NCBI GenBank assembly: GCA_002788675.1
Contig: PFRS01000001.1
Coordinates: 15,009-79,008 of the forward strand
Length of the DNA stretch: 64,000 bases
Source of the DNA: Candidatus Pacebacteria bacterium CG_4_9_14_0_2_um_filter_40_15
Lineage (GTDB): Bacteria > Patescibacteriota > Microgenomatia > UBA1400 > PJMF01
Direction of reading: 5' to 3'
The notes beneath the pieces were generated by a model. The model was not told where the DNA came from. It was given only the letters and a program-made list of their open reading frames with translations, and did not search any database. This document shows positions 1-26,916 of this stretch, one piece after another; position 1 is the first letter of the stretch, and the number at the start of each line of letters is the position of its first letter. The position numbers were made by a program, and so were the translations under genes.

Positions 1-3000
1 TGGGCGGAAACCCAGTTGGAAACATTAATAATTACCCTTGGATGGGTTCCTTCGATTATGAAGCATCCCATCCCTCATGTGGTGTAACACTTGTTGCCAA
101 TAATTGGGCATTAACCGCAAAGCATTGTGTTGATGATCCTGCCAACAATGTGAGTTGGGAGGAAATACAACAACTAACTCCCATTGTTCGATTTAGTAGT
201 TTAGATATGTTTTCTGGTGGAAATACATTTGCAGTAGAAACTGTCGTGACTCATTCGAGTTCTGACTTAGCATTACTAAAGTTGACTCAATCTCCTGCTG
301 TTCCTCCTGTAACGATAGCTACTGATAATAGCCTAAACTATGTAAACAATAATGTAACATTATTAGGCTGGGGTGGACTAAATAATACAGTACACTCCAC
401 ATTGCAGCAGCTATCAACACCCATTGTTAATCCACTTGATTGCGCTGTTAGTCCAAGCTCAGAGTGGATTTGTGTTGGCAATTTTGATGGACAAAGCGCC
501 GTGAAAAGGGATAGTGGTGGACCACTACTGGCCATTAAAAATGGTCAATGGGTACAAATTGGTGTTGCTTCTGGTGGCTACGCAGACTGTGTAGGTAGCA
601 ATACATGTCCTTCACATTACACAAATATTGCACCATTTTACAATTGGATCAATGATGTCATCGACAGTCAACAAGGTGGTCAAGGAAAAGTTGTTGTCTA
701 TAATCAAGACAACTTGTCAGGTGATAGCAGAGATCTCACCTATACTGTTAACTTTGGATATGAAGGCTCAAGTGCCAACTTTGGCACTTCTTCACTCTAT
801 ATCGCTAACGGTTGGTCGGCATTTATCACAAACGGCAGAGATGACTATCTGTGCGCGAGCACAAGTCTTTGGGATTTAGACCAAGACTACTATCATCCAA
901 ACCCTGGAATGAAAATTCATGGGGACATTGCCTTCATTATTACCTATAACGACACATCCTGTGGCGGAGTAGATCAAAATAATGATGGTGTACTAGATAA
1001 TGGCATCCAGTTTCAAGAACCACAAAGTGCTACTGTTCATTTCTATAATGGTGGCTCTTCTGGCGGCTCAAGCAGCGGTGGCGGCACACCAACCCCACCC
1101 TCAACTGGCCACGCCAAGCTCTACAGCCTCTCCAACTACGCCAATCCCATTGGCAACTACGGCCTGGGCTCACACAGTTTTGCCCCCAACACCTACATTC
1201 ACTCTGTGGACCTGGAAGGTGCGGGTAGCTTTATTGTCTATGCTAATGATGGTCGCAGTCGTTGTTTTAGCGAAGACATTCCCAACCTGCAAGACCATGA
1301 AGAATGGTGGAAGGATACCATCCGGATGGATGTGTATGGTAATAATGTCTGCCCAACACCAAACAGCGGTGCTTATGTGGAAATTTGGCAAGCAGCTAAC
1401 TATGGTGGTAATAAACTGGGGAACTACTATGTGGGAACACATACGTTTGCTCCAGACACCTTAATGTACGCTGTTCGGATGAAAGATGGCGCTCAAAGCT
1501 TCGTGGTGCATGCAGCAGACGGCCGTTCGCGGTGTTTCACTGGCGATATGCCAACGCTGCAAGATCACGAAGAGTGGATGCGCGAAACCATTCGCATGGA
1601 CGTGTATGACACTGATGTCTGTGAACCATTCGACTCGAACTACTACACCGGTATTATCGGTGAATGGAACTTCGACAATATGGACGGGACTCGTGTCCTT
1701 AACACTGCTGGATATGGAGACATTTTTGTTTCAAATACCAGTGTGGTAGGTGCAGGGCTGCATGGAAATGGGCTGATTGCAAATGGAACAGACTATGCCT
1801 TCAAGGAACATCCTGAAGGTGGTCTCAACCCCAATAACGATCATCCATTCTCAATTTCATTTTGGATTCAAGGACAAACAACGAGTGGCTTAGATTACCG
1901 ATTCCTCTCAAATATCAATACAGGTGGTGGGTACGACGCTGGCTGGTGGCTCCGCATGGACAAATCAACTGGCAATCTAACCTACTTTTATGGAAAAAAT
2001 GAGGGACCTGGCTACAATCACGCCACTGGGCTCGGTATTACAGGCCTGTTAGATGGACAGCCACATCACGTTGTGATCACTTTTACCGGTATGAATGGTG
2101 GTAAAACCATTCGCACCTATAAAGATGGCGTCCGCGTTGATGACAAAATGATTTCTGGTGGAGGGGATATTTCCTACAACGGATATATGTACCTCTACGT
2201 GGCACACACAACAGTTGCCACTGTCGACGAGCTCAAAATCTACCGCAGCACACTCACACAATCTGAAGTTATGGACCTGTACCTCACTGACACGCCCAAT
2301 CTTCCTTCGCCCCCACAGTCTCAAATTGGACTTGCCGGGCACTGGGATTTTGAAACTGTCAATGGCACAACCATTGTAGACTCGTCTGGGCATAATAACC
2401 TGGTGGCATCGAACGCTTCTGTGATTGATGCAACTGGTATTTTCTCCAACAGTTTACAAACAAATGGCGTTGAGTATGTGTCTGTGACAAATCCCTCAGC
2501 CGCTTTGCGGCCAGGGGATAGTGATCCGTTTTCTGTAGAATTTTGGATTGATGGAAATTCGAGCATTGGAGTTGATTACCAATTCCTCTCGAACATCCAA
2601 ACCGATACGAACGACGCTGGCTGGTGGCTCCGTATGGAAAAATCGGCTGGACAGTTAACGTATTTCTATGGAAAAGGTGGACCTGGACAGAATCATGCAA
2701 CTGGTCTTGCTATCTCAGGTTTGTTAGACGGAAACCCACATCATGTGGTTGTCACGTTTACCGGCATGAATGGTGGCAAAACCATTCGAACCTACAAAGA
2801 CAGCATCTTGGTGGATAACACAGCCATTGTTGGTGGCGATCCAATCGCCTACCATAATAACATGGCGTTCTTCATCGCTAAGAACACGCAGGCAAATGTG
2901 GACAATGTTAAAGTCTACAACCGGATACTCACTGCAGAGGAAGTTGCAACGCACTTTCTTGACGGGATTATTCTGTTACCGTTGCCTGGTTCACAGCCGA

Positions 3001-6000
3001 GTGATATTGCAACGGATTGGCCGTATAGCCAAACCTTAACAATTGATCACACTCTTGTAGCAAATGACTTAGTTAACTTTCCTGTGTTTGTTTCTGGTGA
3101 TGTATTATCTGACCATCTGTTTTCTACAATGGTCACAGAAACGTATGCTCTACCTAATTCTGGAGTAGACTTAACTGGTCTAGCTGGTTATTGGAACTTC
3201 GACGAAGAAGGGGGCAGTACTTTTGCCGATCAAGTTGGTGTGAATGATTTCTTAACTACCAATGATTCTGTCATTGGTAACAACGGCGTTTTTGGCAATG
3301 GCATTACTACAGACGGAACCAATTATGCATATATTCCCAACACCACAAATGCTCTAAAGCCTGGTGATAACTCACCATTCTCTATTTCATTTTGGGTACA
3401 GGGACAAGGAGTTGCTGGAGGCGATCTTGCCTTCCTCTCCAATATGCAAAATCCAGGATCCAATGATGTCGGCTGGTGGTTTCGCATGGATCAACCAACT
3501 GGACATTTGTGGTACTACTATGCAAAAAACGGCATTGGACAAAATCATGCTACTGGCTTAGCTATTGATAACTTACTGGATGGCAAACTACATCACGTTG
3601 TGATAACACTCACAGGCATGAATGGCAGTACAAATAAAACCATTCGTACCTATAAAGACGGTGTCCTCATCGATAATAAAATCGTCAGCGGAGGTGGTTC
3701 AATACAATACCATAGCAATATGGCGCTGTACTTGGCCAAACTCACTGGAGTTACCATCGATGATCTTGCGATCTTTAACCGAGTGCTCGCTGCGTCCGAA
3801 GTACAAACCATCTATCAAGGCAATGCCAACTATATTGACGCAAGAACCATGCGTATAACTTCAGATTCCCAAGGATTCAATGAACTACCTTTCGAGGTTG
3901 TCTCATTTAATCCCAACAGATATGAAGCTGAAATTTGGGTCAAAACTGATGTTTCTGCAACCACCGATACCAAACTCTACGTATGGTACGGAAATGCTTT
4001 AGCTGATGCGCGGCCAAGTAATCATACGTATGGGAGTGGCTCAGTATGGAGTGAGTTTGGTGTAAGAAATCACTTTAATGGCACAACTGCCGATAGCACG
4101 TTACAGTATAAACATGCTGATACTGTTGGTATCAGCTTTGTGCAAAATGCTGTAGGTGAAGGAATAAAGTCAACTGGCGGCACCGATTTTGGCCTCAAGT
4201 ACGGAAATAACTTTTCAGTCTCAACTGGGGATGCGAGATGGTCATTCTGGCTAGAAACCAACTCACCAACCGCCGGAGATGTCATATTCTCTAAAGGTCA
4301 ATCTGTGCTTGATGGATACTACTTCCAAGTTGTATCTGGTAACGCACTTAGATTCACCTCTAACCAGAATGGGACCAGCCAGGCTGTTCTTACTTCAAGC
4401 ACTCTCTCGAACAATGTTTCACATAAAATTGATGTAATAAAGAATGGTAACACTATTTCTATCTACATTGATGGTGTTGAAGCAGCGTACTCAGGGAGTC
4501 AAACAATAAATACTCCAACAAGTAACTCTAAGGATTTTTATCTCTTGAGATATAACCTAGGATCACAAGTTGGGTATTCACTAGAGCTGCCTGCTAAACT
4601 TGATGAGTTTGCTTTCCAAGCAATGGCAAGAACACCAGACTGGATCCAAACTGAGTTTGTTAACCAGTCTGATCCTGCCGCATTCTTTGGGAATGAAATT
4701 CCTGAAAGAATACTGCCAAGCTACATAGCTTCAAACTGGCCCTATAGCCAAACAATCACCATCGATCATACTCAAGTAGCCGGTGACCTCACCGATTTCC
4801 CCGTTCTGATCACTGGCGACGTAATCACAGATCACGTGTTCACAACCTTGCCATCTCAAACAAAATCTTTCCTAGAAAGCGGTGTGAGTACTGCTAACTT
4901 AGCTGGATACTGGACCTTCGATGAAACCAGCGGAACAACATTTGCCGACTATCTGGGCGCCAACAACCTCACAGCCTCAACAGCTGCTGCCGTAGGAAGT
5001 CCTGGTGTATTTGGCAACGGTTTATCTGCAAACGGGTATGCCTACAAAACTAACACCACAAGTGCTCTAAAACCTGGAAATGAAACAGATTTTTCTGTGT
5101 CTTTTTGGGTACAGGGCAGTGGAGGAAGCGGAACAGATTACTCGTTCTTGTCGAATATCCATACCAATAGCACTGATGCCGGTTGGTGGCTTGCAATGAA
5201 CAAGCCTGGCGGCTCATTTACTTACTTTTATGGTAAGAATGGGTCTGGTCTGAACCACGCTACTGGCTTATCAGTGTATCCACTTCTCGATGGGAACCTA
5301 CATCATGTCGTCGTGACATTCACGGGCATGAATGGCGGCAAAATCATCAAAACGTACCGTGATGGAGTGCTTATCGACAACAAAGCCATTGCTGCAGTCG
5401 GAGCCAATATCGCCTACCATAGCACTATGTCCTTGCGCGTAGCCTATGCAACTGGCGCAATGGTTGACGATCTGGCCATCCTTAACCGTACTTTGAGTGC
5501 TGCAGAAGTACAACAAATCTATGCAGGAAATACACCTCAAGCTGATACAAGTAGCATCAGATTCACCTCTGATGCAGAAGGCTTCCAAGAGTTGCCATTC
5601 GAAATCGTGTCTCTTGATCCTATTTCGCATGAGGCAGAAATTTGGGTACAGAGTGATCTATCCTCAACAACGGATACGTCAATCTATCTGTGGTATGGAA
5701 ATGAAGATGCGCAGGCATACGGTGCAACAGCCACCTTTGGTAGTCGGGCTGTATGGTCGAGCTACAAAGCTGTGTACCATAATCCCTTCCATCAAACAGA
5801 TAGCACGGGAACTTACACTCTAAGTTCCGTTGGATCGAATGGTCCAACTTCAACTGATGGTGCTATTTTAAGCGGGACTGATTATGGAACAGTCAAACAC
5901 TCAACCAGTGGCAGTAGTCTCTCAAGAGCTCAGAAGGTTGGCAATGATATGGGCATTCAAGGTGGTTCGTATACTATCCAGATGCTTGTAAGAGCAAATG

Positions 6001-6470
6001 GCAACATTACCGGCTCAGGAACCAACATTGATGGACTTCTGGCAATTACTGATGCGCAGTCAGATTGGCGCCCAATGATCTACACAGCAGCTAAGAATGG
6101 CGCTAGCCTTATCTTCAATCAGAGTGGCATTGGTGGTGGAACAACTGGTAGTTTGACGATTCCTAATCCCATTGGAACAGTAGAGTATGAGTACCTCACC
6201 CTCACTTACAATGGCTCACTCCTTCGTGCTTACCATGATGGAGTAGAAATTGGTTCCATGACGGTAACAGGAACACCCGTAGGAGGTTTCAATCCCTATG
6301 ACGGCGTGATAATTGGTGGTGTGCCGGGGTGGAACGGCATCGATCAGCTCTACGATTCCCTCCATGACATAGACGAAGTGCGTATTTCTGCACAAGTTAA
6401 AAGTCCTGAATGGATTACTACAGAAAGTAATGTCCTAAAAAGCCCCGAGACATTCTTCATCACACCTTAA
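1..6470 (+). CDS. 3' portion of a giant secreted multidomain protein. The frame is open to position 1 and upstream residues (..YPWMGSFDY..) already match the trypsin N-terminal region, so the true start lies outside the window. Domains: trypsin-like serine protease, two tandem ~90-aa Cys-containing repeats, at least five LamG/concanavalin-A-like modules, and interleaved DUF2341-like segments.
   Basis: Trypsin catalytic motifs are present in order: His (WALTAKHC), Asp (SDLALLKL) and Ser (GDSGGPL). The module LDGxxHHVV(I/V)TFTGMNGGKTIRTYKDG recurs four times together with the AGxWxFDE...FWxxG LamG-like signature. The segments WPYSQT(L/I)TIDHT and ELPFE(V/I)VS...AEIWV...LY(V/L)WYGN recur and look DUF2341-like. 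The ORF is 6.4 kb with no in-frame stops. Confidence 0.75.
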   Translation, partial: GGNPVGNINNYPWMGSFDYEASHPSCGVTLVANNWALTAKHCVDDPANNVSWEEIQQLTPIVRFSSLDMFSGGNTFAVETVVTHSSSDLALLKLTQSPAVPPVTIATDNSLNYVNNNVTLLGWGGLNNTVHSTLQQLSTPIVNPLDCAVSPSSEWICVGNFDGQSAVKRDSGGPLLAIKNGQWVQIGVASGGYADCVGSNTCPSHYTNIAPFYNWINDVIDSQQGGQGKVVVYNQDNLSGDSRDLTYTVNFGYEGSSANFGTSSLYIANGWSAFITNGRDDYLCASTSLWDLDQDYYHPNPGMKIHGDIAFIITYNDTSCGGVDQNNDGVLDNGIQFQEPQSATVHFYNGGSSGGSSSGGGTPTPPSTGHAKLYSLSNYANPIGNYGLGSHSFAPNTYIHSVDLEGAGSFIVYANDGRSRCFSEDIPNLQDHEEWWKDTIRMDVYGNNVCPTPNSGAYVEIWQAANYGGNKLGNYYVGTHTFAPDTLMYAVRMKDGAQSFVVHAADGRSRCFTGDMPTLQDHEEWMRETIRMDVYDTDVCEPFDSNYYTGIIGEWNFDNMDGTRVLNTAGYGDIFVSNTSVVGAGLHGNGLIANGTDYAFKEHPEGGLNPNNDHPFSISFWIQGQTTSGLDYRFLSNINTGGGYDAGWWLRMDKSTGNLTYFYGKNEGPGYNHATGLGITGLLDGQPHHVVITFTGMNGGKTIRTYKDGVRVDDKMISGGGDISYNGYMYLYVAHTTVATVDELKIYRSTLTQSEVMDLYLTDTPNLPSPPQSQIGLAGHWDFETVNGTTIVDSSGHNNLVASNASVIDATGIFSNSLQTNGVEYVSVTNPSAALRPGDSDPFSVEFWIDGNSSIGVDYQFLSNIQTDTNDAGWWLRMEKSAGQLTYFYGKGGPGQNHATGLAISGLLDGNPHHVVVTFTGMNGGKTIRTYKDSILVDNTAIVGGDPIAYHNNMAFFIAKNTQANVDNVKVYNRILTAEEVATHFLDGIILLPLPGSQPSDIATDWPYSQTLTIDHTLVANDLVNFPVFVSGDVLSDHLFSTMVTETYALPNSGVDLTGLAGYWNFDEEGGSTFADQVGVNDFLTTNDSVIGNNGVFGNGITTDGTNYAYIPNTTNALKPGDNSPFSISFWVQGQGVAGGDLAFLSNMQNPGSNDVGWWFRMDQPTGHLWYYYAKNGIGQNHATGLAIDNLLDGKLHHVVITLTGMNGSTNKTIRTYKDGVLIDNKIVSGGGSIQYHSNMALYLAKLTGVTIDDLAIFNRVLAASEVQTIYQGNANYIDARTMRITSDSQGFNELPFEVVSFNPNRYEAEIWVKTDVSATTDTKLYVWYGNALADARPSNHTYGSGSVWSEFGVRNHFNGTTADSTLQYKHADTVGISFVQNAVGEGIKSTGGTDFGLKYGNNFSVSTGDARWSFWLETNSPTAGDVIFSKGQSVLDGYYFQVVSGNALRFTSNQNGTSQAVLTSSTLSNNVSHKIDVIKNGNTISIYIDGVEAAYSGSQTINTPTSNSKDFYLLRYNLGSQVGYSLELPAKLDEFAFQAMARTPDWIQTEFVNQSDPAAFFGNEIPERILPSYIASNWPYSQTITIDHTQVAGDLTDFPVLITGDVITDHVFTTLPSQTKSFLESGVSTANLAGYWTFDETSGTTFADYLGANNLTASTAAAVGSPGVFGNGLSANGYAYKTNTTSALKPGNETDFSVSFWVQGSGGSGTDYSFLSNIHTNSTDAGWWLAMNKPGGSFTYFYGKNGSGLNHATGLSVYPLLDGNLHHVVVTFTGMNGGKIIKTYRDGVLIDNKAIAAVGANIAYHSTMSLRVAYATGAMVDDLAILNRTLSAAEVQQIYAGNTPQADTSSIRFTSDAEGFQELPFEIVSLDPISHEAEIWVQSDLSSTTDTSIYLWYGNEDAQAYGATATFGSRAVWSSYKAVYHNPFHQTDSTGTYTLSSVGSNGPTSTDGAILSGTDYGTVKHSTSGSSLSRAQKVGNDMGIQGGSYTIQMLVRANGNITGSGTNIDGLLAITDAQSDWRPMIYTAAKNGASLIFNQSGIGGGTTGSLTIPNPIGTVEYEYLTLTYNGSLLRAYHDGVEIGSMTVTGTPVGGFNPYDGVIIGGVPGWNGIDQLYDSLHDIDEVRISAQVKSPEWITTESNVLKSPETFFITP

Positions 6471-6551
6471 TATTCAACACGTTAACCTAGGTGAACGTAT
6501 ACTCACTGCTGCTTATTGCTAGCAGATAAGTGATGCATACTTCATAAATGT

Positions 6552-6587
6552 AGCCCCTTGAGAAATATCTCAAGGGGCTTTTTTGTT
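6552..6587 (+). terminator. Rho-independent terminator downstream of the giant protein gene
   Basis: GC hairpin agcccctt-gagaaatatctc-aaggggct followed by TTTTTTGTT. Confidence 0.6.
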
Positions 6588-6684
6588 CCTATGCTACAAT
6601 ACACCCAAGATGAAAAACACCTCATATTGCGCTACACTCTATATATACCTAGAAAAGTAGACGGGGTAGTGTGTTAGTTTGTAC

Positions 6685-6709
6685 AAACCCCAGCCTTGGG
6701 GTTTTTTTG
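6685..6709 (+). terminator. Second hairpin with a T-run, about 20 nt upstream of the chorismate mutase start. It may be a second terminator in tandem or an attenuator.
   Basis: aaacccca-gcc-ttggggttt followed by TTTTTTTG. Confidence 0.4.
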
Positions 6710-6728
6710 TTTAGAAAAAGAAAGAAAT

Positions 6729-13195: not shown

Positions 13196-14134
13196 TTATT
13201 CAGGTGTTCCACCGTCACCGGTAGTTACCTCAGGCGGTGGTGTAGGAGTAGAAAGGAGACCAGTATCTGTAGGTTGTTCTGTTTCAAGAGCAGGAGTTCC
13301 CTGATCGGTTTGATCCGTTTGATCACCTACATCAAGTTGTGACTTAAACTCATTTAATATTTGTAACTTATCAACTCCAAATGGATCTTCAGTGCCGCCA
13401 CCAACTATTTCAGTCTGTTCAGGCAAGTCATAATTCTGGAACTGCGCCAGAGCAGTGAGTACATTTCTATCTAGAGCCGTAAGTTTGGGAAGTGGCGCAT
13501 CAACAGTTGCTTTTATTGACTGGGTGAAGAAATAGGTACTGGTACTCAAAGTCGCTTTAATCTGACGATCACTGCCGCGATCAGCTCCGGATGCTCCCTG
13601 GCCAAGTGAAAGTTTTGTGATTGTAGTAAATGGTGAAATTTTTTCTATATCGAGTAAAAACTGCTGTAGACCATCAAATGAACCTTCAATCTCAAGCTCT
13701 AAATCAAGAGTGTCAACAGATGCTGCAGCTTGCTTAGTAGTTTTAGTGGCATCAGCACTGTCTGTAGAGATCTGGCCAGGACTGAGTTCAAAGTTGCCAA
13801 CACTGATATTGTTTGCAATAGCAATGCTGTTTAAACTAGTCAAAAACTCGAGCAAAGGTTTTTTCGAGGGCAGAGCAGAGTTAACAACATCAGCCTGGGA
13901 AAATTCAGTCGTTGAATCGATAGACTGCAGTTCTAATAACTTGGCTTGCAGTTTTTCTAGCGTAGGATGTTCTTTACTATATTTAGTGTTTAAACTCAGT
14001 GACTCTGTGATTTGAGGATAAATAGCAAAAGCAACAATAGCCATACCAAGAGCTACTAAACCAATGGTGTACACGAGCTTACGTCGTGTTATCCAAATGA
14101 TCTTGTAGTTAAATGCTGTTTTCTTTGCTGCCAT
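13196..14134 (-). CDS. pilO: PilO-like type IV pilus assembly protein with a Thr/Pro/Asp/Gln-rich C-terminal extension
   Basis: N-terminal TM segment, a coiled-coil, a periplasmic domain, and a position downstream of pilM-pilN. The call is mainly positional. Confidence 0.45.
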   Translation of the reverse strand: MAAKKTAFNYKIIWITRRKLVYTIGLVALGMAIVAFAIYPQITESLSLNTKYSKEHPTLEKLQAKLLELQSIDSTTEFSQADVVNSALPSKKPLLEFLTSLNSIAIANNISVGNFELSPGQISTDSADATKTTKQAAASVDTLDLELEIEGSFDGLQQFLLDIEKISPFTTITKLSLGQGASGADRGSDRQIKATLSTSTYFFTQSIKATVDAPLPKLTALDRNVLTALAQFQNYDLPEQTEIVGGGTEDPFGVDKLQILNEFKSQLDVGDQTDQTDQGTPALETEQPTDTGLLSTPTPPPEVTTGDGGTPE

Positions 14135-14140
14135 AGTTTC

Positions 14141-14770
14141 CTATTGATTCACTTCTTCGTTTTCTGTGGTGTCTTGTACTAAGCCTTCTTGTGCGCTTGC
14201 TGCTACGTCTTCAAGATACGTTGAACCACCAAGAATAATAGTAAGTTTAATCGAGTATGCTCCAGATTCACCACGGCCAAGATCGCTTTTCTGTACCTTT
14301 GCATACTTACTGAGAACCTCATCTGATTCTAGAACTGTAAACACGTTTTCTAAATCAAAAACACTTGGAGCTGTGAGGGTGAATGACACAATGCTGTTGT
14401 CATCTTCCGAGTAATCAATACCACTAATGATCACTTGAGGACCGAATACCTGTGAAAAATAGACCATTGCCTCTTGCTTGTCTTGACGTTTACCAAACAA
14501 GTCTGAGAGAGCACGAAGCTTATGGGCAAACACGTTATAGTCTTTTTCAACCTGTTCTTGAGCCTCAATAGCCTTACGCGCATTTGCCTGGTTATCTTTG
14601 AGCGCGTTAATTCTATACAGAAAGAAAAATCTCAGACCAATGGTAATTAAAAAAACTACGAATACTACAATCACACCAATGATGGCGTATTGAAACCACT
14701 TCTCATCCTGGACCTGTTGTGCAGTGAGACGTTTTCTTCGATTCGCAACAAAATTAATACCTTTGGCCAT
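14141..14770 (-). CDS. pilN: PilN-like fimbrial assembly protein
   Basis: 209 aa, a single N-terminal TM helix (YAIIGVIVVFVVFLITIGL), and located directly after pilM. Confidence 0.5.
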   Translation of the reverse strand: MAKGINFVANRRKRLTAQQVQDEKWFQYAIIGVIVVFVVFLITIGLRFFFLYRINALKDNQANARKAIEAQEQVEKDYNVFAHKLRALSDLFGKRQDKQEAMVYFSQVFGPQVIISGIDYSEDDNSIVSFTLTAPSVFDLENVFTVLESDEVLSKYAKVQKSDLGRGESGAYSIKLTIILGGSTYLEDVAASAQEGLVQDTTENEEVNQ

Positions 14771-14771
14771 G

Positions 14772-15779
14772 TTACATTTCTCTCAAGAGTAATCCCATAC
14801 AGACACCCATTGCAGGTGGATTAATAGTTTCAGGAATAGCGCCATCTATGCCCGTAAAAGGAGCAGCAACAAGAACTTCTGTACCCAATTCTTGCGCAAT
14901 ATACTGCACAAGATTAGGCATAGCAGCTGTACCTCCCGATAGGACAACACGCTGAATTGATTCAGTTGGATTCTGAGTCACAAAAAATTGAATTGATTTT
15001 TTCATTTCAGCTGTCAAAATCTGAAGACCAGGAAGCAACGCAGCAGCAACTTTACCCTGGAATTGAGTTTCATCAAGACCATAGGTGCGTTTGTATTTTT
15101 CAGCTTGGTGCTGGTCAAGACCGACCGTTTGTTCCAGAGCCTTGGTAAGAAGTTGACCACCATTCATATGACTGGTAACAAAAGTGAGTTCACCTTTTTG
15201 AATAATAGACATATTCATACTCGAGGCGCCCAAGTGGACAATCATTGTATTTGGATCTTCTGGAGTAAACATGAGCGAACGAATAAGTGAAATCATGTGT
15301 GTTTCAACGAGTGAAGGCTCAATACCTAAAATATGGAACATATCAACAAAACGATCGACAATTTGTTTACGAGCACCAACGAGTAAAATTCTCATTGGCT
15401 CTTTTTCCTTTTTGGGTCCACGATAGAGCACTTGGTACTCAAGAGCTAATTCTTCTGGAGGAATTGGAATATGCTGTTCGGCTTGCCACCCAATTGCTGA
15501 AGCAAGCTCTGCATCGCTGAGTGGTGGAATTTCAATGATTTTAGTTGAGATGACTGATTCAGGGAGTGAAATACGCACATCTGTTCGAGGGAGATCATTG
15601 TCAACAATAACTGATTCAATCAGATTAACGAGTTTATCTTGACTAACATCGTCGGTCGGAACAGCAATACCTGTCGTGTTAAAAACTTCGGCAATACGTT
15701 CAATTTTGGGCTTTGGACCAGCAGTTCCAGCAATTGCTTTTATACTGTAGGTTCCAATATCAAGTGCGAGTGTAGACAT
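14772..15779 (-). CDS. pilM: Type IV pilus assembly ATPase-like protein PilM (actin-like fold)
   Basis: N-terminal LALDIGTYSIKAIAG phosphate-1-like motif, 335 aa, and the pilMNO gene order. Confidence 0.75.
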   Translation of the reverse strand: MSTLALDIGTYSIKAIAGTAGPKPKIERIAEVFNTTGIAVPTDDVSQDKLVNLIESVIVDNDLPRTDVRISLPESVISTKIIEIPPLSDAELASAIGWQAEQHIPIPPEELALEYQVLYRGPKKEKEPMRILLVGARKQIVDRFVDMFHILGIEPSLVETHMISLIRSLMFTPEDPNTMIVHLGASSMNMSIIQKGELTFVTSHMNGGQLLTKALEQTVGLDQHQAEKYKRTYGLDETQFQGKVAAALLPGLQILTAEMKKSIQFFVTQNPTESIQRVVLSGGTAAMPNLVQYIAQELGTEVLVAAPFTGIDGAIPETINPPAMGVCMGLLLREM

Positions 15780-15814
15780 AGGGCAGGCTTTCTTGTCTTA
15801 ATATGAATAGTTTC

Positions 15815-16612
15815 TTACGGATTTTGTGTAATACTAGCTCCTGAGTACAACGCATAGTCCATATATGCAGGACCCGTTGGTAATGTACGCGACACTTCAA
15901 TATTTCGTTCCTCATCGCCTTCTGAATATGTGCCTGTTGAAGAAATGACGTGATATTGAGTTGGGAACCCAACTCCACCAGATATTTTAATGTCGGTATC
16001 GGCGTACACAGGTTTAATTCTCATGAAAAGAGGGTTCGGCGGAAGAGATTGATTAAAGGGTGATCCAACAGAGGTAATGGTAAATTGATGGCGATAGGTG
16101 TTACTAGCACCGGTTGCCGTCCCGTCAAAAAAGTTATCTGAGTCATGACCATTGCATGTTGGTCCAAATGGAATTACTTTTGTACGAACCGTAGCTGGAT
16201 TAGTAGTTGTATCACTGTAAAAAATATTTGCAACTAATGATGCACGCTCAGAACAATCTGCTTCGGATGCCCACTCAAAATTTACACCACTGGTATAGCC
16301 AGTCAAGTCGATATGGACACTTGCACCTTCTGCAACTCGAGTATCGAGCGTGCTACTGCCAGTAACATTATAGGCGACATCAACACCATCGATAGATAAC
16401 GTACCTTGGCCTTGCAACTCACTCAATGCTTGTTCAATTCCAGATTCAGCAGCATTAAAAACACGGGCACTTTCAGACTGCTGATCGGAAAGAAACAGTT
16501 CTTGGGTTGTTCGTGTTGCTAAAGACAAACCAATGGTAAGTAAAACTACCATAATGAGCAGCACTACAACAGCGACTTGTCCAGATTGGGGAGTGGTTTT
16601 TTTATTTTGCAT
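15815..16612 (-). CDS. PilX-like pilus assembly or minor-pilin-associated protein
   Basis: The N-terminus QSGQVAVVVLLIMVVLLTIGLSLATRT...AAESGIEQAL matches the PilX N-terminal domain pattern. Confidence 0.45.
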   Translation of the reverse strand: MQNKKTTPQSGQVAVVVLLIMVVLLTIGLSLATRTTQELFLSDQQSESARVFNAAESGIEQALSELQGQGTLSIDGVDVAYNVTGSSTLDTRVAEGASVHIDLTGYTSGVNFEWASEADCSERASLVANIFYSDTTTNPATVRTKVIPFGPTCNGHDSDNFFDGTATGASNTYRHQFTITSVGSPFNQSLPPNPLFMRIKPVYADTDIKISGGVGFPTQYHVISSTGTYSEGDEERNIEVSRTLPTGPAYMDYALYSGASITQNP

Positions 16613-16723
16613 AGTACGTACACACTACTACTATGCATCATCATACCCTAAAAACTAGGTCACTCGCAAGGGGAGAGATGAGGAAAAAATTTGGAACTTT
16701 TTGCAGAAAATTATTGCTGAAAA

Positions 16724-17287
16724 TTAACGATACTCTTCGTTATCTTCCATATCCTTTTGAATCAGGTTACGAAGATACACAGATCGTGGAATTTTTTTAT
16801 TCTTTGCAATCCAGTCAAGGTAGTTTCCGATGGCAGGGGAGATGAAGAAGTTGAAGCGGACGTCTGCTGATTCGGCAGCATTCTCAAGAATGATATCGAG
16901 CACATCATCAATGGTGTCTTCATTGTAACCAACAATTTGCAATTTTTCTTTTTCAACACCCTTAATACTATTTGGTGGGTTTGATTTTTTGTCATTATAC
17001 AAAGCAATAACCGGTTTATGTAATGAGACAGCTACTGCAAGCTCATAACCAATACTAATATCTGGTTTAGTTGTTTCAAAGACAACTACATCGGCTGTTT
17101 TTATCCAATTCATAGATCGCTCGACATAAAACTTTGCCTCTTGAGGACTTTCCTTATCTATATCATCAAGAGTTCTACTAAGATAATGGTCTGTAACTAA
17201 TGAATGGTCAAGCTTGTGAATAAACTGACAAATTTTTTTAAAATCAGATTTATCACCATCTACCGCTGCTGCGAAGTGTACTTTCAT
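16724..17287 (-). CDS. Paralog A: DNPH1/Rcl-like (nucleoside 2-deoxyribosyltransferase family) domain fused to a C-terminal ribbon-helix-helix DNA-binding domain. The catalytic Glu is retained.
   Basis: VVVFETTKPDISIGYELAVAVSLHKPVIALY matches the Rcl/NDT core (PSLGVGYELGRAVALGKPIL), including the nucleophile Glu in GYEL. The C-terminal DVRFNFFISPAIGNYLDWIAKNKKIPRSVYLRNLIQ is a typical RHH (beta strand followed by two helices). Confidence 0.5.
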   Translation of the reverse strand: MKVHFAAAVDGDKSDFKKICQFIHKLDHSLVTDHYLSRTLDDIDKESPQEAKFYVERSMNWIKTADVVVFETTKPDISIGYELAVAVSLHKPVIALYNDKKSNPPNSIKGVEKEKLQIVGYNEDTIDDVLDIILENAAESADVRFNFFISPAIGNYLDWIAKNKKIPRSVYLRNLIQKDMEDNEEYR

Positions 17288-17296
17288 ATTAACATC

Positions 17297-18331
17297 CTAT
17301 ATTACCTTTTTAATTATTCTCTCAATATCTTTATTTAATTTTTCTCTTTTTTGAGTGACGCTATGACTTCGTTCATTAGACAAATCCTCTGCATGCAGTT
17401 TTGAAAGATTATTTGAGACAAAATGTAGATATCCAAACTGCATGCCCGAATCATGTGCAGCTTTAGCAAAATACCCTATCTCAGAATCAACTAATGAAAA
17501 ATTGCTAAATAACTTAACCCAATCTTTATTCTCAAACAAAACAGAAGGAGAATTAACATGACTCCCCTCAAAGATTAAGTCGAGATCTAGATCTGCAAAT
17601 GGATTTTTCCACTTTATAATCTCACCATTTATATAGCAAATACCACCAGTAGCCAATACCTGGTTTGGAATTATCGACTCATCAATACCACCCACTTTAG
17701 CAGTAAAAAATATTTTCTTATGATGTAATTCGCTAAGATAATGAACAAGTCTATACAAAATGTCTCCCCAAAAACTAAATTGAAGTATTAAATAAGTAAC
17801 ACTTTTTCCATTTGGTAGTGTTTCAACAGCCCAAAGAAATCTATCATTCTCTTGCCAAACTGTAGTTTCATCTGTGAAATTAAACAATCCTGATCCAACA
17901 ACAATTGCATCTGTTACCTCCAGAACATCTAACTCAAGATCATATATTTCTTGCCAACACTCTTCCTGTGACGGCAAAATATAAGTAACATGATCATATT
18001 TTTTCCCCTTAAGTGCTAGATATGAACTTATCAAAGATGCATAGTGTCGGACATAATCTATTCCAGGAAAACATTTAATGTATAGTACATTTTTAACTAC
18101 TTCAGCTGTTGGTCTCTGCCAGTTAGTCAATTTTCCACCTTTTTCGTATTTTGAAATTATGGCGGTTCTATCGTAATTACCCACCACAATAATTTCATCG
18201 TAAAGATCAGTATCAACATCCCTTATCAGATGATGCATCTTTATGTCAATATATTTCCCCAAACTTTTCCCCATACTATGCGTATCTGGATCAATCACAG
18301 TATGTGGATTTAGTTGTCTATTATTTTTCAT
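17297..18331 (-). CDS. Divergent PNP/UDP-phosphorylase-family protein (purine nucleoside phosphorylase or nucleosidase-like fold)
   Basis: YDEIIVVGNYDRTAIISKYE resembles the PNP N-terminal ADVVLMPGDPLRAKYIAE motif. DSEIGYFAKAAHDSGMQFGYLHFVSNN aligns residue-for-residue with the PNP C-terminal [26 protein letters not shown] motif, with Asn in place of the usual Asp as in trimeric PNPs. The gene is AT-rich. Confidence 0.5.
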   Translation of the reverse strand: MKNNRQLNPHTVIDPDTHSMGKSLGKYIDIKMHHLIRDVDTDLYDEIIVVGNYDRTAIISKYEKGGKLTNWQRPTAEVVKNVLYIKCFPGIDYVRHYASLISSYLALKGKKYDHVTYILPSQEECWQEIYDLELDVLEVTDAIVVGSGLFNFTDETTVWQENDRFLWAVETLPNGKSVTYLILQFSFWGDILYRLVHYLSELHHKKIFFTAKVGGIDESIIPNQVLATGGICYINGEIIKWKNPFADLDLDLIFEGSHVNSPSVLFENKDWVKLFSNFSLVDSEIGYFAKAAHDSGMQFGYLHFVSNNLSKLHAEDLSNERSHSVTQKREKLNKDIERIIKKVI

Positions 18332-18430
18332 TGAACTCTCTACTTATCATTACAAAGTCATATCTGGCAATTATACCAAATTAGCACCACAATTGTATCA
18401 TATGAAATCAAGAAGTAGTGAGGATATATT

Positions 18431-18461
18431 GATTTATAGGGTATAATTTAAGTGATATAAT
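18431..18461 (+). promoter_or_regulatory. Candidate sigma70-type promoter for paralog B, inside the AT-rich divergent intergenic region
   Basis: TTGATT (18431-18436), then 16 nt, then an extended -10 TGATATAAT (18453-18461). The ATG lies 27 nt downstream. Confidence 0.3.
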
Positions 18462-18487
18462 AAAAAACTTGTAAAATACAAAAAAAT

Positions 18488-19066
18488 ATGAAAATTTACT
18501 TCACAACATCTGCAAGAGGAGATGAAGTCATTTACTCAAATTCATTGAATATCTATAAAAAAATTAATGACTTAAACCACATACATGTTGATAATTTCTT
18601 TGAAGATATGAACGTCTCGAAGGTCTATTCTGACAATTATGAGGATAAGAAAAAACGATTTATAGATGCAACGAAAAATATCAGAGATGCAGAAATCATT
18701 ATTTTAGAGGTATCAACACATAGTTTATCAATGGGATATTTATTAAAGATGGCGCTCGAAAGTGGAAAGCCTGTAATTCTGCTACATACTCAAAATAAAC
18801 CACCTGCATTTGCTGAAGGCATTGATAATAGTAAACTTCAAATATGGGAATATTCACCAGAAGATATAAAATTTATTTTAACTGACGCAATTGATGCTGC
18901 AAAAAATGAAATAGATGTACGCTTTAACATACTCCTTACATCAGAACTATATGATTACATAAATCAACAAGCTAAAAATTCAAATATCAGTAAGTCTGCA
19001 TTCATAAGAGATTTAATTAACAACAATAAAAATAAAGACCTAGCAGCGGCATACAAAATAGAGTAA
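18488..19066 (+). CDS. Paralog B: NDT/DNPH1-like domain fused to RHH, with the catalytic Glu replaced (GYLL in place of GYEL). Probably an inactive sensor or regulator version.
   Basis: Collinear with paralog A at roughly 35-40% identity over 190 aa (for example KLQIxxY, DVRFN, SxxYIRxLI). The core is HSLSMGYLLKMALESGKPVILL, and the RHH segment is DVRFNILLTSELYDYINQQAKNSNISKSAFIRDLIN. GC content is very low, under 30%. Confidence 0.5.
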   Translation: MKIYFTTSARGDEVIYSNSLNIYKKINDLNHIHVDNFFEDMNVSKVYSDNYEDKKKRFIDATKNIRDAEIIILEVSTHSLSMGYLLKMALESGKPVILLHTQNKPPAFAEGIDNSKLQIWEYSPEDIKFILTDAIDAAKNEIDVRFNILLTSELYDYINQQAKNSNISKSAFIRDLINNNKNKDLAAAYKIE

Positions 19067-19068
19067 AA

Positions 19069-19653
19069 TTGAAAGTAGAGAAGAGCAGAAATTTAGTAGG
19101 ACTGAGCGGAATTTTTATGCAACACAGTGATTATCAAAAAAACTCACAGAATGGCTTTACTTTAATCGAGCTACTTATCGTGACTGCGCTGATGGTAATT
19201 CTCACACTCACTGTTTCAGCAATGTTCATGACGTTCATGGTTACTAATGCTCGCACAAATACAAAGAATACTCTCAAGGTTGAAGGTTCGTATGCATTGT
19301 CGCAAATTGAATTTATGCTACGAAATTCATACAAGTTAGTTGAAAATTCTGATACACAAGTGTGTCAAGGTAATATGGACCGCATTGCACTTGAATCTAT
19401 TGATGGAGGACAAACGGAGTTTTTCCTTGATACATCCGTAACGCCACCAAAGATTGCCTCAAACAGTGGTACCTATTTAACTTCTGATACTGTTCAAGTC
19501 GCTAACTTACAGTTTGATTGTTCCGAAAGATATAGTGGTGAACGATCAGTAACAATTGATTTTGACCTCAGCAAAGTTGTTCCATCAATTTCCAATACCA
19601 CTAGTGAAGAATCGTCACAACACTTCTCATCGGTTGTCTCACTGCGCAACTAA
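19069..19653 (+). CDS. Type IV pilin-like protein on the opposite strand to the rest of the pilin cluster. An alternative start is the ATG at 19117.
   Basis: Class III signal-peptide / N-methylation motif QNGFTLIELLIVTALMVIL. The start overlaps the stop of paralog B with a 2-nt gap. Confidence 0.55.
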   Translation: MKVEKSRNLVGLSGIFMQHSDYQKNSQNGFTLIELLIVTALMVILTLTVSAMFMTFMVTNARTNTKNTLKVEGSYALSQIEFMLRNSYKLVENSDTQVCQGNMDRIALESIDGGQTEFFLDTSVTPPKIASNSGTYLTSDTVQVANLQFDCSERYSGERSVTIDFDLSKVVPSISNTTSEESSQHFSSVVSLRN

Positions 19654-19677
19654 TGTAAGAAAAAAGCAACATACTTT

Positions 19678-20172
19678 TTACTGTCTGGTGAAATCTTTAA
19701 ATGTCTGTGTAACCTTTACATCACTCGTAACACCCGATTTACGCTCCCAGCTTACCGTAATTTCGGCTGAGACGTCAGGACTCGCTCCAGATTGTTTTGT
19801 TAATACAACAGAACGATTAAAATCAAGATTAGACTCGGTTACTATGCACAAATTTTGATTCGTGGTAAGTTCAGTCAGTGAAGACATTCCTGTGGGCATA
19901 CAGAATGTTCCTGGAGTAATCGAATCATGGAACGTTATCCATCCCAAATTACCTCGCTCTGAACGAAGTGTCTCCATTCCTTGTTGAGCCAAAACAGTTG
20001 CAATTTCACGATACCGAGCTTCAGAATTGTTTTTTACTGAGCTGGAAACACCGGCTGCAACAGCAGTTACCACGGTTCCCACAATCATGGTAGCAATAAG
20101 AAGTTCAATAAGCGTTGAACCCTTTTTAAAATTTTTCCGTTGTTTCTTAAGAAATTTTTTAATTATAAGCAT
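19678..20172 (-). CDS. Pseudopilin or minor pilin
   Basis: Prepilin N-terminus KKGSTLIELLIATMIVGTVV. Confidence 0.6.
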   Translation of the reverse strand: MLIIKKFLKKQRKNFKKGSTLIELLIATMIVGTVVTAVAAGVSSSVKNNSEARYREIATVLAQQGMETLRSERGNLGWITFHDSITPGTFCMPTGMSSLTELTTNQNLCIVTESNLDFNRSVVLTKQSGASPDVSAEITVSWERKSGVTSDVKVTQTFKDFTRQ

Positions 20173-20687
20173 GTGGTACTTCCTGAACTAACTACAAAAC
20201 AACCTTCAGAAATTTCACCTGAATCTTTTACTTCAAATGCGTAATAGGTATTATTTCCTTCAATGTGAATAAAGTTGCTTGCTGGTGACGTCACCAAAGC
20301 AGAACCTGTGAGGGTATAGAATGTAATGTCCATTGCTGTTACTGTCACGCCAGATTGTATTTCGTATACATCTCTATTTTGACCTTCTGTAAGTGAAAAT
20401 TTACTTGTTCCACACAGAATCTTACTCTCAAGAGAAGTTCCATTCGTTTTAACTTTGTAGCCTTGCAACACACATCCTGCTTGGTTTGGATTGTCGCGGA
20501 CGCGCGCGCGCGTCCGCGCACTCTCCAGCTGCTGTTTAACTTCACTCATCGTATTCGCCACATTTTGACGATCATTAAATTTAAAAAATCCAGCAATACT
20601 CCCACCAAAAAGCACCAGCATAATTGAAACTGTAATAATCATTTCAATCAGGGTAAGACCAGATTGAGATTGTTTCGGCGTTAACAT
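20163..20687 (-). CDS. Pseudopilin or minor pilin
   Basis: Prepilin N-terminus SQSGLTLIEMIITVSIMLVLFG. Confidence 0.6.
   Translation of the reverse strand: MLTPKQSQSGLTLIEMIITVSIMLVLFGGSIAGFFKFNDRQNVANTMSEVKQQLESARTRARVRDNPNQAGCVLQGYKVKTNGTSLESKILCGTSKFSLTEGQNRDVYEIQSGVTVTAMDITFYTLTGSALVTSPASNFIHIEGNNTYYAFEVKDSGEISEGCFVVSSGSTTCL
20495..20518. repeat. 24-bp perfect palindrome of alternating CG (cgcggacgcgcgcgcgcgtccgcg) inside the pseudopilin coding sequence
   Basis: Direct reading; its reverse complement is identical. It encodes ..ARTRARVRD.. on the minus strand. Confidence 0.9.
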
Positions 20688-20726
20688 AGCGAGCAGGCTT
20701 TCATACCGTTTTATACTGGTAAAATC

Positions 20727-21152
20727 TTAAGGATTCGACACACAGTACCCATTTGTAGGTGCTGAACATCCAGATGCTCCTCCAGCATTTGCTGAATTTT
20801 CCATCGAGGCGCATACACAAAAGTCAGATCCCGCTGAAGAATAAGAATACACATTTGGCGCAGTTCCTTTAGGATCAGTTGGTGCAGGGGACGTTAGGTA
20901 ATCCAGATCGATGAGTCTTGTTGTCATAGTTCCATATACTGAACCAGTTGGGTAGCTTCCTAAGTCTGCACGATATAAAACCAATCCTTGGCGAACGGTC
21001 TCTAGATCTGCTTTGCGTTTTGCATCTCGAGAATTTCTACCTGCACTTTGGAAACTCACTAAGCCAATTGTTGTGAGCACAATAATTATTGTTGCCACAA
21101 CAAGGAGTTCAATTAAACTAAAACCTGATGATTGTGAATATTTTTTTAGCAT
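20727..21152 (-). CDS. Type IV pilin or minor pilin
   Basis: SSGFSLIELLVVATIIIVLTTIGL prepilin N-terminus, with C-terminal Cys pairs. Confidence 0.6.
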   Translation of the reverse strand: MLKKYSQSSGFSLIELLVVATIIIVLTTIGLVSFQSAGRNSRDAKRKADLETVRQGLVLYRADLGSYPTGSVYGTMTTRLIDLDYLTSPAPTDPKGTAPNVYSYSSAGSDFCVCASMENSANAGGASGCSAPTNGYCVSNP

Positions 21153-21162
21153 AAAAACGTCC

Positions 21163-21597
21163 TTATTGTTGGTTCACCACACAGTAATAACTACCAGCCG
21201 TACCTAGACCAGCGCAGGATCCATTAGTTGCATTTCCATTTGTGTTACCGGATGGTTCAAGTTGGGCACACACACAGTAGGTATTCGCGACCGCATTCGA
21301 AACACATGGGTATGCCGCACCACTTTTGGGATCTGTTGGCAGCGAGCTACCTGGAAGTGAAGAAGCCATAGTACTGCAGTTTGCAGCATAGTTACTGCTT
21401 GTGGCTGCATAGTATTGTTCGAAGGATTTAGAGATTGAATTTACATCTCCCTGACGCTTAGCATTACGTGCCTTTTGCTGGGCAGTGGTAAATGCAGCCG
21501 CGCTAATTGCGATAAGAATACCAATAATTGAAATAACGACCAATAATTCTAGGAGTGTAAATCCTAAAGATGTTTTTTTTCTGTGCAAAATGTGCAT
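21163..21597 (-). CDS. Type IV pilin or minor pilin. The start is trimmed to the ATG at 21597 (MHILHRKKTSLGFTLLELLVV).
   Basis: Prepilin motif GFTLLELLVVISIIGILIAI. A GGAAG SD sits 5 nt upstream of that ATG. The ORF tracker's longer N-terminus needs a TTG start with no RBS. Confidence 0.55.
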   Translation of the reverse strand: MHILHRKKTSLGFTLLELLVVISIIGILIAISAAAFTTAQQKARNAKRQGDVNSISKSFEQYYAATSSNYAANCSTMASSLPGSSLPTDPKSGAAYPCVSNAVANTYCVCAQLEPSGNTNGNATNGSCAGLGTAGSYYCVVNQQ

Positions 21598-21655
21598 ATT
21601 CTTCCTTTTATATCTAATCCTCATTCTAGGCAGAGTACTGCCTAAAAGCAAGCTG

Positions 21656-22612: not shown

Positions 22613-22674
22613 ATTTATATAGTACTAGATATATATGGCACTTGTCACCCCTCTGAAAAGCAAAAACTCCGATC

Positions 22675-25792: not shown

Positions 25793-25813
25793 AGTTCCTA
25801 TCCTGAACGAATA

Positions 25814-26875: not shown

Positions 26876-26916
26876 AGAGCTCCTTTACTGCTTCGATTCT
26901 CTCATGTTTGCGCACC

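Follow-up and report, generated by a model that had tools for sequence, protein, structure and literature searches.

The window analysed here, a 64,000-nucleotide (nt) stretch of Candidatus Pacebacteria contig PFRS01000001.1, opens within a 6.5-kb gene for a giant, predicted secreted protein. This protein carries a chymotrypsin-fold peptidase domain at its N-terminus, followed by three domains that we assign to the beta-gamma-crystallins and by a long tail of lectin-like modules. Judging from its sequence, we hold with moderate confidence that it is best explained overall as an extracellular protease tethered to its target. Several of its features had been pointed out in a first-pass annotation of the window, and those claims are taken up where our results bear on them.

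Window bases 3-6470 of the plus strand constitute one open frame (frame 3) that ends in a stop codon at 6468-6470, and the open reading frame (ORF) listing gives 42-6470 because it begins at the first ATG. It had been noted earlier that the window edge truncates the protein and that the full architecture could not be known. The truncation is real, but the architecture is known in full. A search of 5.8 billion clustered proteins returned an identical public protein (P0001; 2,184 amino acids (aa), 100% identity), and only VTNKQLILFFCSIFFFLLLAPVRDVKAVV, comprising the signal peptide and two further residues, lies off the window, which begins at G30. Numbering below is that of the full protein, in which residue n is window residue n - 29. 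Extension of the sequence upstream, as had been proposed, located the start both in the identical 2,184-aa proteins and in locus L001, a longer contig that is 100% identical to the window across 16.5 kb and in which a GTG start codon lies 6 nt downstream of a GAGGT ribosome-binding site.

The P0001 cluster holds 17 member sequences on 12 contigs, the longest of 1,189,027 base pairs (bp). The population is nearly clonal, as the 14 other cluster members that were compared show 0-2 substitutions, and the identical sequence occurs on more than 10 contigs from several samples. GenBank copies of the protein all derive from metagenome-assembled genomes (MAGs) of Candidatus Pacebacteria, and the same attribution holds for the GyrA, TyrRS and SHMT proteins of the window. 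Entries PIZ79053.1, PJA69258.1 and PJC42019.1 are all labelled ‘hypothetical protein’, and fragments of the protein are labelled ‘trypsin-like serine protease’ or ‘LamG domain-containing protein’. The host, a groundwater member of Candidatus Pacebacteria within the candidate phyla radiation (CPR), has a genome of about 1.2 Mb, of which this gene makes up about 0.5%.

The protein search returned a single ortholog (P0002; 2,180 aa, 87% identity) and, beyond these two proteins, only P0003 (44% identity, 15% of the query) and two weak domain-level matches. The whole architecture is confined to two lineages among the 5.8 billion clustered sequences. A scan of GTDB species representatives with the whole protein found no relatives, and no paralogs of any part of the protein occur elsewhere in the window. 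The ratio of non-synonymous to synonymous divergence (dN/dS) between the window protein and P0002 is 0.01-0.22 in every domain; this is a real protein-coding gene under purifying selection in all domains. Its features, all on the plus strand, are listed here by window position.

1-650: S1A (chymotrypsin-fold) peptidase domain (Pfam Trypsin; aa 28-245), with the window edge falling after the signal peptide
651-971: predicted divergent ‘X-type’ beta-gamma-crystallin domain (aa 246-352; Cys313, Cys349), from profiles and a structure model
972-1031: DQNNDGVLD loop and short tail after X (DxNxDGxxD; calcium-loop-like)
1032-1088: Gly/Ser/Pro/Thr linker GGSSGGSSSGGGTPTPPS (aa 373-391; predicted local distance difference test (pLDDT) score of the model <35)
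1089-1352: predicted beta-gamma-crystallin domain 1, ‘NLQDHE’ type (aa 392-479; Cys450, Cys479; pLDDT 82-91)
1353-1622: predicted beta-gamma-crystallin domain 2, ‘NLQDHE’ type (aa 480-569; Cys540, Cys569; pLDDT 84-95)
1647-2300: LamG/ConA-like domain 1, A-type, LDGQPHHV (Laminin_G_3 1.3e-10)
2331-2960: LamG/ConA-like domain 2, A-type, LDGNPHHV (Laminin_G_3 6e-12; Toxin_R_bind_N 1e-7; NCBIfam NTNH partial 1.4e-12)
2997-3155: DUF2341 copy a, N piece (WPYSQTLTIDHT...FPVFV), which aligns with the leading half of the unbroken DUF2341 in P0003 and P0004
3174-3809: LamG domain 3, A-type, inside DUF2341 copy a (Laminin_G_3 8e-13), which fills the gap of about 225 aa in alignment A2
3831-4040: DUF2341 copy a, C piece (MRITSD...ELPFEVVSF...AEIWV...LYVWYGN), alone 23.2 bits to Pfam DUF2341 (cut-off 23.4)
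4110-4700: LamG domain 4, B-type, ending ...TPDWIQTEFVNQSDPAAFF (Laminin_G_3 1.6e-14), the canonical partner after DUF2341
4716-4871: DUF2341 copy b, N piece, 57% identical to copy a
4899-5510: LamG domain 5, A-type, inside DUF2341 copy b (Laminin_G_3 6.7e-13; alignment A2)
5544-5744: DUF2341 copy b, C piece (Pfam DUF2341 26.9 bits, above cut-off)
5817-6467: LamG domain 6, B-type, and C-terminus ...SPEWITTESNVLKSPETFFITP (Laminin_G_3 1.4e-7), with no anchor or sorting motif
6468-6470: stop codon, from the open-frame listing
6552-6579: terminator-like hairpin, 82 nt past the stop, with a 12-bp stem (7 GC pairs) and a T run behind it

A hydropathy scan reveals a sole hydrophobic segment, the N-terminal signal peptide (aa 1-27), and hydropathy and motif scans of the whole protein found neither a membrane anchor nor a C-terminal sorting motif. 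All 13 cysteines are located within aa 1-569, one of them in the signal peptide, and there are none in the 1,615-residue tail (aa 570-2184; window 1647-6467). From the terminator-like hairpin, the giant gene looks like its own transcription unit; three such hairpins were found where 0.7 would be expected in shuffles, and these are consensus matches only. A second one, at 6685-6704, is separated from the first by about 100 nt, and both occupy the 258-nt spacer (6471-6728) before a chorismate-mutase-like gene.

The head of the protein is readily recognized as an S1A peptidase. Pfam Trypsin matches the whole protein at 3e-28 and the head piece at 1.9e-30 (106.8 bits, where the cut-off is 20.6; profile positions 3-220 of 220). 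In a phmmer search of the PDB, plasma kallikrein was the best match (3.5e-19) among 380 S1 chains at E<=1e-5. The triad residues His57, Asp102 and Ser195 (codons at nt 123-125, 264-266 and 513-515) appear in order and in register with plasma kallikrein and chymotrypsinogen, such that LTAKHC aligns with LTAAHC, SDLALLKL with HDIALIKL, and DSGGPL with the same letters. The motifs themselves lie at nt 114-128 (TAKHC), 264-278 (DLALL) and 504-527 (KRDSGGPL), the last of which had been misread as GDSGGPL. In common with S1A peptidases (plasma kallikrein, factor XIa, chymotrypsin, elastase and 1os8, with fold-level sequence matches of 1e-13 to 3.5e-19), the head also keeps Asp194, Ser214, the pairs Cys42-Cys58 and Cys168-Cys182, and an I/V-x-G-G N-terminus. 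It differs from those enzymes by having Arg193, by lacking both Cys191-Cys220 and a pro-peptide, and by bearing a C-terminal extension of about 1,940 residues.

The earlier description of an intact trypsin-like triad is correct with respect to the three catalytic residues, but ‘intact’ overstates the condition of the active site. Alignment with kallikrein, chymotrypsinogen, P0002 and P0048 places Arg (nt 507-509) in place of Gly at the oxyanion-hole position 193, and Gly193 is near-universal in S1 enzymes. Among the three S1-headed members that we identified, residue 193 is Arg here, Gly in the ortholog P0002 and Lys in P0048, whose triad is intact; thus, two of the three carry a basic residue at this site. 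The backbone NH at this position could still serve the oxyanion hole. Gly193 has been described as strongly conserved, and larger residues at this site, for example Phe193 in TSV-PA, are associated with reduced inhibitor sensitivity and a narrower substrate interaction; snake-venom S1 enzymes with a bulky residue 193 are reported to be active yet inhibitor-resistant (PMC3123349). Because of this literature, we consider it more likely that Arg193 tunes activity than that it abolishes it and, by analogy, the substitution probably narrows the substrate range or blocks protein inhibitors while catalysis is retained. The combination of Ser189 (nt 495-497), Gly216 and Ser226 predicts a chymotrypsin- or elastase-like P1 preference rather than a trypsin-like one.

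The signal-peptide cut, predicted by eye between VKA and VVGG, would yield the mature N-terminus V28-V-G-G, and the context of this cut (A/VVGG, A/ISGG and A/IHNG) is kept in all three S1-headed members. Chymotrypsin-fold enzymes become active when an Ile16-type N-terminus forms a salt bridge with Asp194. Because the signal peptide abuts VVGG, which is an N-terminus of this type, cleavage by signal peptidase after VKA would directly expose V-V-G-G for pairing with Asp194, and the protease, having no pro-peptide, would be switched on at export.

Two tandem Cys-containing repeats of about 90 aa had been noticed behind the protease, and these are indeed present (aa 392-479 and 480-569), with 53% identity to each other and an E value of 2e-32 when the protein is compared with itself in chunks. 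Tandem Repeats Finder reports no DNA-level tandem repeat at nt 1080-1700, where the repeat is visible only at the protein level. We can now add an identity, that of beta-gamma-crystallin domains, and a third copy, X, located before them. Pfam finds no match for X or for either Cys repeat as single sequences, and phmmer with the 333-aa cassette retrieves only 56 relatives among 1.84 billion representatives. However, iterated profile searches started from X and from repeat 1 arrive at one set of domains, which makes X a third, divergent copy. A 32-sequence repeat profile (A1) matches Clostrillin in the PDB (4.1e-6 over profile positions 7-85 of 92) and also 3i9h, Flavollin 3hzb, Protein S 1prr and M-crystallin 2k1w. 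In an AlphaFold model built from a 14-sequence alignment, both repeats reach pLDDT values of 82-95, and X is all-beta at 75-85. When this cassette model was compared with the PDB by Foldseek, the top 50 matches were all gamma- or beta-crystallins (best E 2.9e-7). Profiles and model thus identify X and the two Cys repeats as three beta-gamma-crystallin domains.

These domains share with microbial beta-gamma-crystallins (Clostrillin 3snz, Flavollin 3hzb, Protein S 1prr, M-crystallin 2k1w) a length of about 90 aa and two Greek keys. They differ in that their calcium motif is degenerate, that they carry the signature of their own subfamily (NLQDHExWW, with one invariant Trp and two invariant Cys), that they fall below any Pfam crystallin model, and that they typically stand directly after an enzymatic head. 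The DxNxDGxxD loop after X is kept in P0003, P0013, P0014, P0016, P0018 and P0024, and we infer from its sequence that the DQNNDGVLD version found here may bind calcium. A word-index homology search with crystallin alignment A3 gave no match, and a metagenome scan with alignment A5 yielded only two distant loci (L009 and L010).

More than five LamG modules had been proposed for the remainder of the protein, and six stretches match Laminin_G_3 (6e-61 for the whole protein), each of which alone scores 32.2-54.8 bits against a gathering score of 27.6. The cassette reported to occur at least four times, LDGxxHHV, is present in four copies, with two each of WPYSQT and WYGN. The DUF2341-like pieces likewise correspond to Pfam DUF2341 (PF10102; COG MJ1470), which matches in two stretches at 4e-11 (43.6 bits for the whole protein against 23.4), and the Pfam check that had been suggested thereby gives significant results for Trypsin, Laminin_G_3 and DUF2341 alike. 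The arrangement of these pieces is more elaborate than was first described. The segments WPYSQT...FPV and RITSD...EIWV...WYGN are the two halves of one DUF2341 domain; they are contiguous in P0003 (aa 976-1090) and in four copies of P0004, whereas here they lie about 225 aa apart, and alignment to P0003 and P0004 shows the gap to be exactly LamG3 or LamG5. The contiguous DUF2341 pattern (W-x-x-R/S-x-x-I-T-I ... FPV ... D-l-R-F ... WV ... YYGN) is broken in both copies. From these alignments, each DUF2341 domain is split by a LamG domain inserted within it. The body thus reads as two A-type LamG domains followed by two units, each composed of a DUF2341 with an inserted A-type LamG and then a B-type LamG.

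The four A-type domains (LDGxxHHV...TFTGMNGGK) also match Toxin_R_bind_N and NTNH, and an AlphaFold model of the DUF2341/LamG unit finds its best PDB matches in the HCN domain of TeNT, BoNT and NTNH (E 5e-10). A clostridial toxin reading of these matches was rejected, as only the jelly-roll fold is common. The NTNH model scores 46 bits against a cut-off of 800, over model positions 811-1002 only, and what the A-type LamG domains share with the HCN subdomain of clostridial neurotoxins and NTNH is the lectin-like jelly roll. The window protein, unlike clostridial neurotoxins, is without an M27 light chain, a translocation domain or an HCC trefoil. There is also a resemblance to the DUF2341 and LamG proteins of Patescibacteria and archaea (COG MJ1470), in which DUF2341 is also followed by a Laminin_G_3 domain ending in ...WIxxE...P..FF, and which are likewise giant, secreted and encoded by small-genome hosts. 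The window protein differs in the extra LamG that interrupts each of its DUF2341 domains and in its protease head and crystallin cassette; moreover, it lacks a class III signal peptide, and its gene lies outside any pilus operon. Comparison of the DUF2341 profile with PDB sequences produced no credible match, and a word-index homology search with the DUF2341/LamG unit recovered only the fragment P0101.

The relatives of the crystallin cassette bear on what such a body might be used for. In most of the 56, the cassette lies directly after the N-terminal head, and the heads vary. Pfam identifies Peptidase_M23 heads in P0007, P0010, P0012, P0013, P0020 (from a Candidatus Microgenomates MAG), P0023 and P0028, CHAP heads in P0015 and P0017, accompanied there by a second M23 domain, and a Trypsin head in P0048. 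When profiles seeded from these Pfam-verified heads were used to classify the 42 relatives that have an N-terminal head region, 21 were assigned to M23, three to S1 and three to CHAP, with 15 left without assignment. The X domain and then NLQDHE modules follow the signal and head in P0007 (M23 head), in P0003 (unclassified head, PA14, LamG and DUF2341) and in P0048 (S1 head, fn3 tail), as they do here. P0003 and P0007 also have A-type LamG and DUF2341 modules in common with the window protein (44-54% identity); indeed, P0007 places an M23 head on the same type of body (X, two NLQDHE domains, A-type LamG and DUF2341 N piece). The cassette relatives differ from the window protein in their heads (M23, CHAP and others) and in their tails (fn3, PKD, PA14). 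These comparisons suggest that the cassette and tail may represent a delivery scaffold with exchangeable lytic heads.

Some other attributes of these relatives merit mention. A C-terminal tail of the form [YF]LP[LIV][IV]x[RK] (YLPLINR, FLPLVSK, YLPLIQK) occurs in P0006, P0012, P0013, P0014, P0016, P0019, P0022-P0026, P0028 and P0030. It resembles an undescribed C-terminal sorting or anchoring signal, and the window protein is without such a tail. The locus of P0003, the nearest relative apart from the ortholog (L008 1-7800), holds genes for a serine recombinase, an N6 methylase/specificity protein, HTH_17 and SpoVG, and is mobile-element-like. The P0007 gene (L007 4142-6634) lies 105 nt from a contig end and may be incomplete; it is close to a gene with SMODS and AGS_C domains, which is similar to those of cyclic oligonucleotide-based antiphage signalling systems (CBASS), and a LexA-like repressor.

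The P0002 locus is syntenic with that of the window, with genes for 617-, 495- and 274-aa proteins upstream and chorismate-mutase-like and TyrRS genes downstream. Divergence between the two loci is distributed unevenly, as is evident from the following values of aa identity, synonymous divergence (dS) and, where available, non-synonymous divergence (dN).

Protease: 45% identity, dS 2.26, dN 0.50
X: 67% identity, dS 2.27
Cys repeats: 97-99% identity, dS 0.23-0.42
LamG1-4 and both DUF2341 N pieces: 91-98% identity, dS 0.14-0.48
Last three modules: 80-92% identity, dS 0.8-1.1
Flanking g617, g495 and TyrRS against their counterparts: 54-82% identity, dS 1.8, 2.3 and 5.3

Synonymous divergence is saturated in the head, as it is in the flanking genes, and the low dS of 0.14-0.48 covers aa 392-1655. 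In a sliding window, the proportion of synonymous differences (pS) goes down within aa 363-413 from 0.55-0.9 to 0.16-0.3, with the drop at the linker (aa 373-391), and within the body it is a patchwork, with values of 0.03-0.08 at aa 1414-1563 and of 0.6-0.8 at aa 589-638 and 1739-1838. Constraint at the protein level cannot lower synonymous divergence in this manner. The low dS of the body therefore indicates repeated and recent exchange of this part between the two lineages through recombination, and the linker appears to be the recombination junction because synonymous divergence collapses there. On this evidence, the gene is best described as a recombination mosaic in which divergence of the signal peptide, the protease and X has kept pace with that of the genome. 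The protease is the fastest-evolving domain and the dN of the head is the highest in the locus; nevertheless, we rejected a ‘hypervariable head’ as the main story, since the dS of the head equals that of the flanking genes and it is the body that is unusually similar instead. Functional residues differ between the two heads as well, with Ser189 and Arg193 here and Asp189 (trypsin-like) and Gly193 in P0002.

The DNA of the repeats (about nt 1080-1700) had also been described as GC-richer than the rest of the gene. This holds, in that the GC fraction is 0.505 for nt 1091-1625, compared with 0.41 in the protease part, 0.45 over the gene as a whole and 0.425 across the window, but the enrichment is modest. 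At third codon positions (GC3), the two Cys repeats have values of 0.58 and 0.48, and 50 other ORFs average 0.365 (sd 0.059, maximum 0.496). The value for aa 392-1027 (0.478) is at the top of the native range but inside it, and only the 88-codon first repeat (0.58) exceeds the maximum. A foreign origin of the GC-rich segment was rejected, as the GC3 shift lies inside the upper range of native genes. Because GC3 is mostly inside this range, the mosaic claim rests on synonymous divergence.

Attachment to other cells is the presumed way of life of the CPR/Patescibacteria and, to our knowledge, very few molecules for their attachment or feeding are known. As a secreted protein that combines an enzyme with lectin-like modules, the giant protein is a concrete candidate for the recognition and digestion of host surfaces. 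In the tethered-protease explanation, the tail would bind glycans or other polymers on the envelope of another cell or on detritus, the crystallin modules would act as a rigid stalk, and the N-terminal protease would thereby be held at the bound surface. By comparison with the relatives, the cassette and tail would present the lytic head to that surface. Candidate targets could be the envelope of a host, the cell's own envelope or detritus. The earlier suggestion of an adhesin or processing protein on the surface of an episymbiont agrees with this picture as far as the CPR host is concerned; the surface role continues to be a matter of inference, as no anchor is present.

Several points weigh against this explanation or its components. 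Arg193 could cripple the oxyanion hole. The notion that the protease is held at a surface depends on lectin-like folds only, as no anchor was found, and the binding role of the LamG and DUF2341 domains is a prediction. The model of the DUF2341/LamG unit is of moderate confidence only (pLDDT 66). When the sequence is read directly against the repeat-profile/PDB alignment, the canonical calcium motif of the crystallins (N/D-N/D-x-x-S/T-S) is degenerate, with domain 1 reading PNTYIHS and KDTIRM. The exchange of heads is proposed from uncharacterised metagenomic proteins, with 15 of the 42 heads unassigned. Recombination is deduced from a single ortholog pair, and base composition gives the mosaic weak support, as the GC3 shift falls within the upper range of native genes.

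The most serious competitor is a free exoprotease that scavenges nutrients, whose tail would settle on polysaccharide or glycoprotein detritus and whose peptide products would feed an amino-acid-auxotrophic cell. A Sec signal without an anchor, a domain logic like that of secreted enzymes with carbohydrate-binding modules, and a small genome of about 1.2 Mb are all compatible with such a role. However, half of the assessed relatives bear peptidoglycan hydrolase heads, which directs attention to cell envelopes, and the maintenance of a 6.5-kb gene whose tail is recurrently exchanged between lineages suggests partner-specific recognition. Neither observation is decisive, and we regard the scavenging enzyme as possible but unlikely.

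Slightly more doubtful is that the protein serves purely as an adhesin or structural surface component, in which case Arg193 would have turned the protease into a dead binding module (a pseudo-protease) and the cell would only stick to its host. Its fast-evolving head (dN 0.50, 45% identity) and its eight lectin-like or DUF2341 modules could be understood in this way, as could the replacement of Gly193, and giant DUF2341-bearing proteins of Patescibacteria have been viewed as adhesion or host-interaction factors (PMC11809585). The retention of His57, Asp102, Ser195, Asp194, Ser214 and the activating N-terminus nevertheless speaks against a dead enzyme. Moreover, the ortholog has the canonical motif GGDSGGP, P0048 combines Lys193 with an intact triad, and substitutions at this position are compatible with activity in venom S1 enzymes (PMC3123349). 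Relatives also carry bona fide hydrolase heads, and an anchor is absent. The relatives mostly have cell-wall hydrolase heads, and this pattern speaks more for a tethered enzyme of lytic or degradative action than for a pure adhesin.

A type IV pilus-associated tip adhesin deserves consideration given that DUF2341 (COG MJ1470) is a predicted component of type IV pili-like systems (PMC4858521; PMC11809585) and that a complete pilus locus begins 6.7 kb downstream of the giant gene. This locus comprises the following window genes.

13196-29319: type IV pilus locus, complete
13196-15779: PilO/N/M-like genes
15815-16612: PilX-like gene
19069-21651: four pilins with N-methylation motifs
22675-23493: prepilin peptidase PilD
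24593-25792: PilC
25814-26875: PilT
26917-29319: PilB, 800 aa

The connection is improbable. The giant protein has a Sec-type signal, not the class III/N-methylation type seen in the four pilins, and housekeeping genes (chorismate mutase-like, TyrRS, RecG, NusB, RNase III and S16) intervene. In addition, the first pilus genes are on the opposite strand, the giant gene has its own terminator-like hairpin, and P0003 and P0007 are not beside pilus genes. Finally, a captured phage tail-fibre or tail-lysin-like protein is very improbable: although the union of lytic heads with lectin-like domains is reminiscent of phage tail-associated lysins, LamG pieces weakly match tail-fibre and baseplate families in PHROG, and P0003 adjoins serine recombinase, methylase and HTH_17 genes, no relative was found in 2.9 million viral contigs, the PHROG matches are weak, confined to generic LamG regions and absent over the head and crystallins, and the protein has an N-terminal Sec signal and chromosomal neighbours conserved in two lineages.

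Returning to the tethered protease, a broader and more tentative proposal is that the cassette of X and NLQDHE domains marks an undescribed modular family of extracellular ‘lysins’, in which M23, CHAP and S1 heads are recombined at a flexible linker onto recognition bodies in CPR and other metagenomic lineages. The Pacebacteria protein would then be an effector that attacks host envelopes, with a tail traded between lineages and a head whose specificity is diverging. All of the modules are from superfamilies already known, and giant proteins of the LamG/DUF2341 kind have been noted in Patescibacteria before. What is new is new in degree, namely the architecture, a crystallin subfamily that escapes Pfam and goes together with lytic heads, the nesting of LamG in DUF2341, and the head/body mosaic. 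The protein does not overturn current views. If our description is true, the crystallin subfamily, the nested LamG and the sharp recombination boundary between head and body would be of wider use.

A few observations concern neighbouring genes. In the upstream DNA (L001 1-5475), the 617- and 495-aa multi-pass membrane proteins that precede the giant gene in both lineages have no Pfam match and resemble GT-C/PMT-type glycosyltransferases by eye. Their genes are followed by one for a 274-aa single-pass membrane protein, and a partial ORF that contains a PA14-like segment lies farther upstream. These upstream membrane proteins could modify or partner the secreted protein. Within the pilus locus, the N-terminal region of PilB (about 230-300 aa) gives a weak match to the NfrB model (residues 227-418, E 2.7e-08). 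Beyond that locus, the match of GyrA (33871-36669) to its family model is broken into two parts (aa 61-248 and 303-920). This break implies that the N-terminal domain contains an insertion of about 55 aa, which is not long enough to be an intein.

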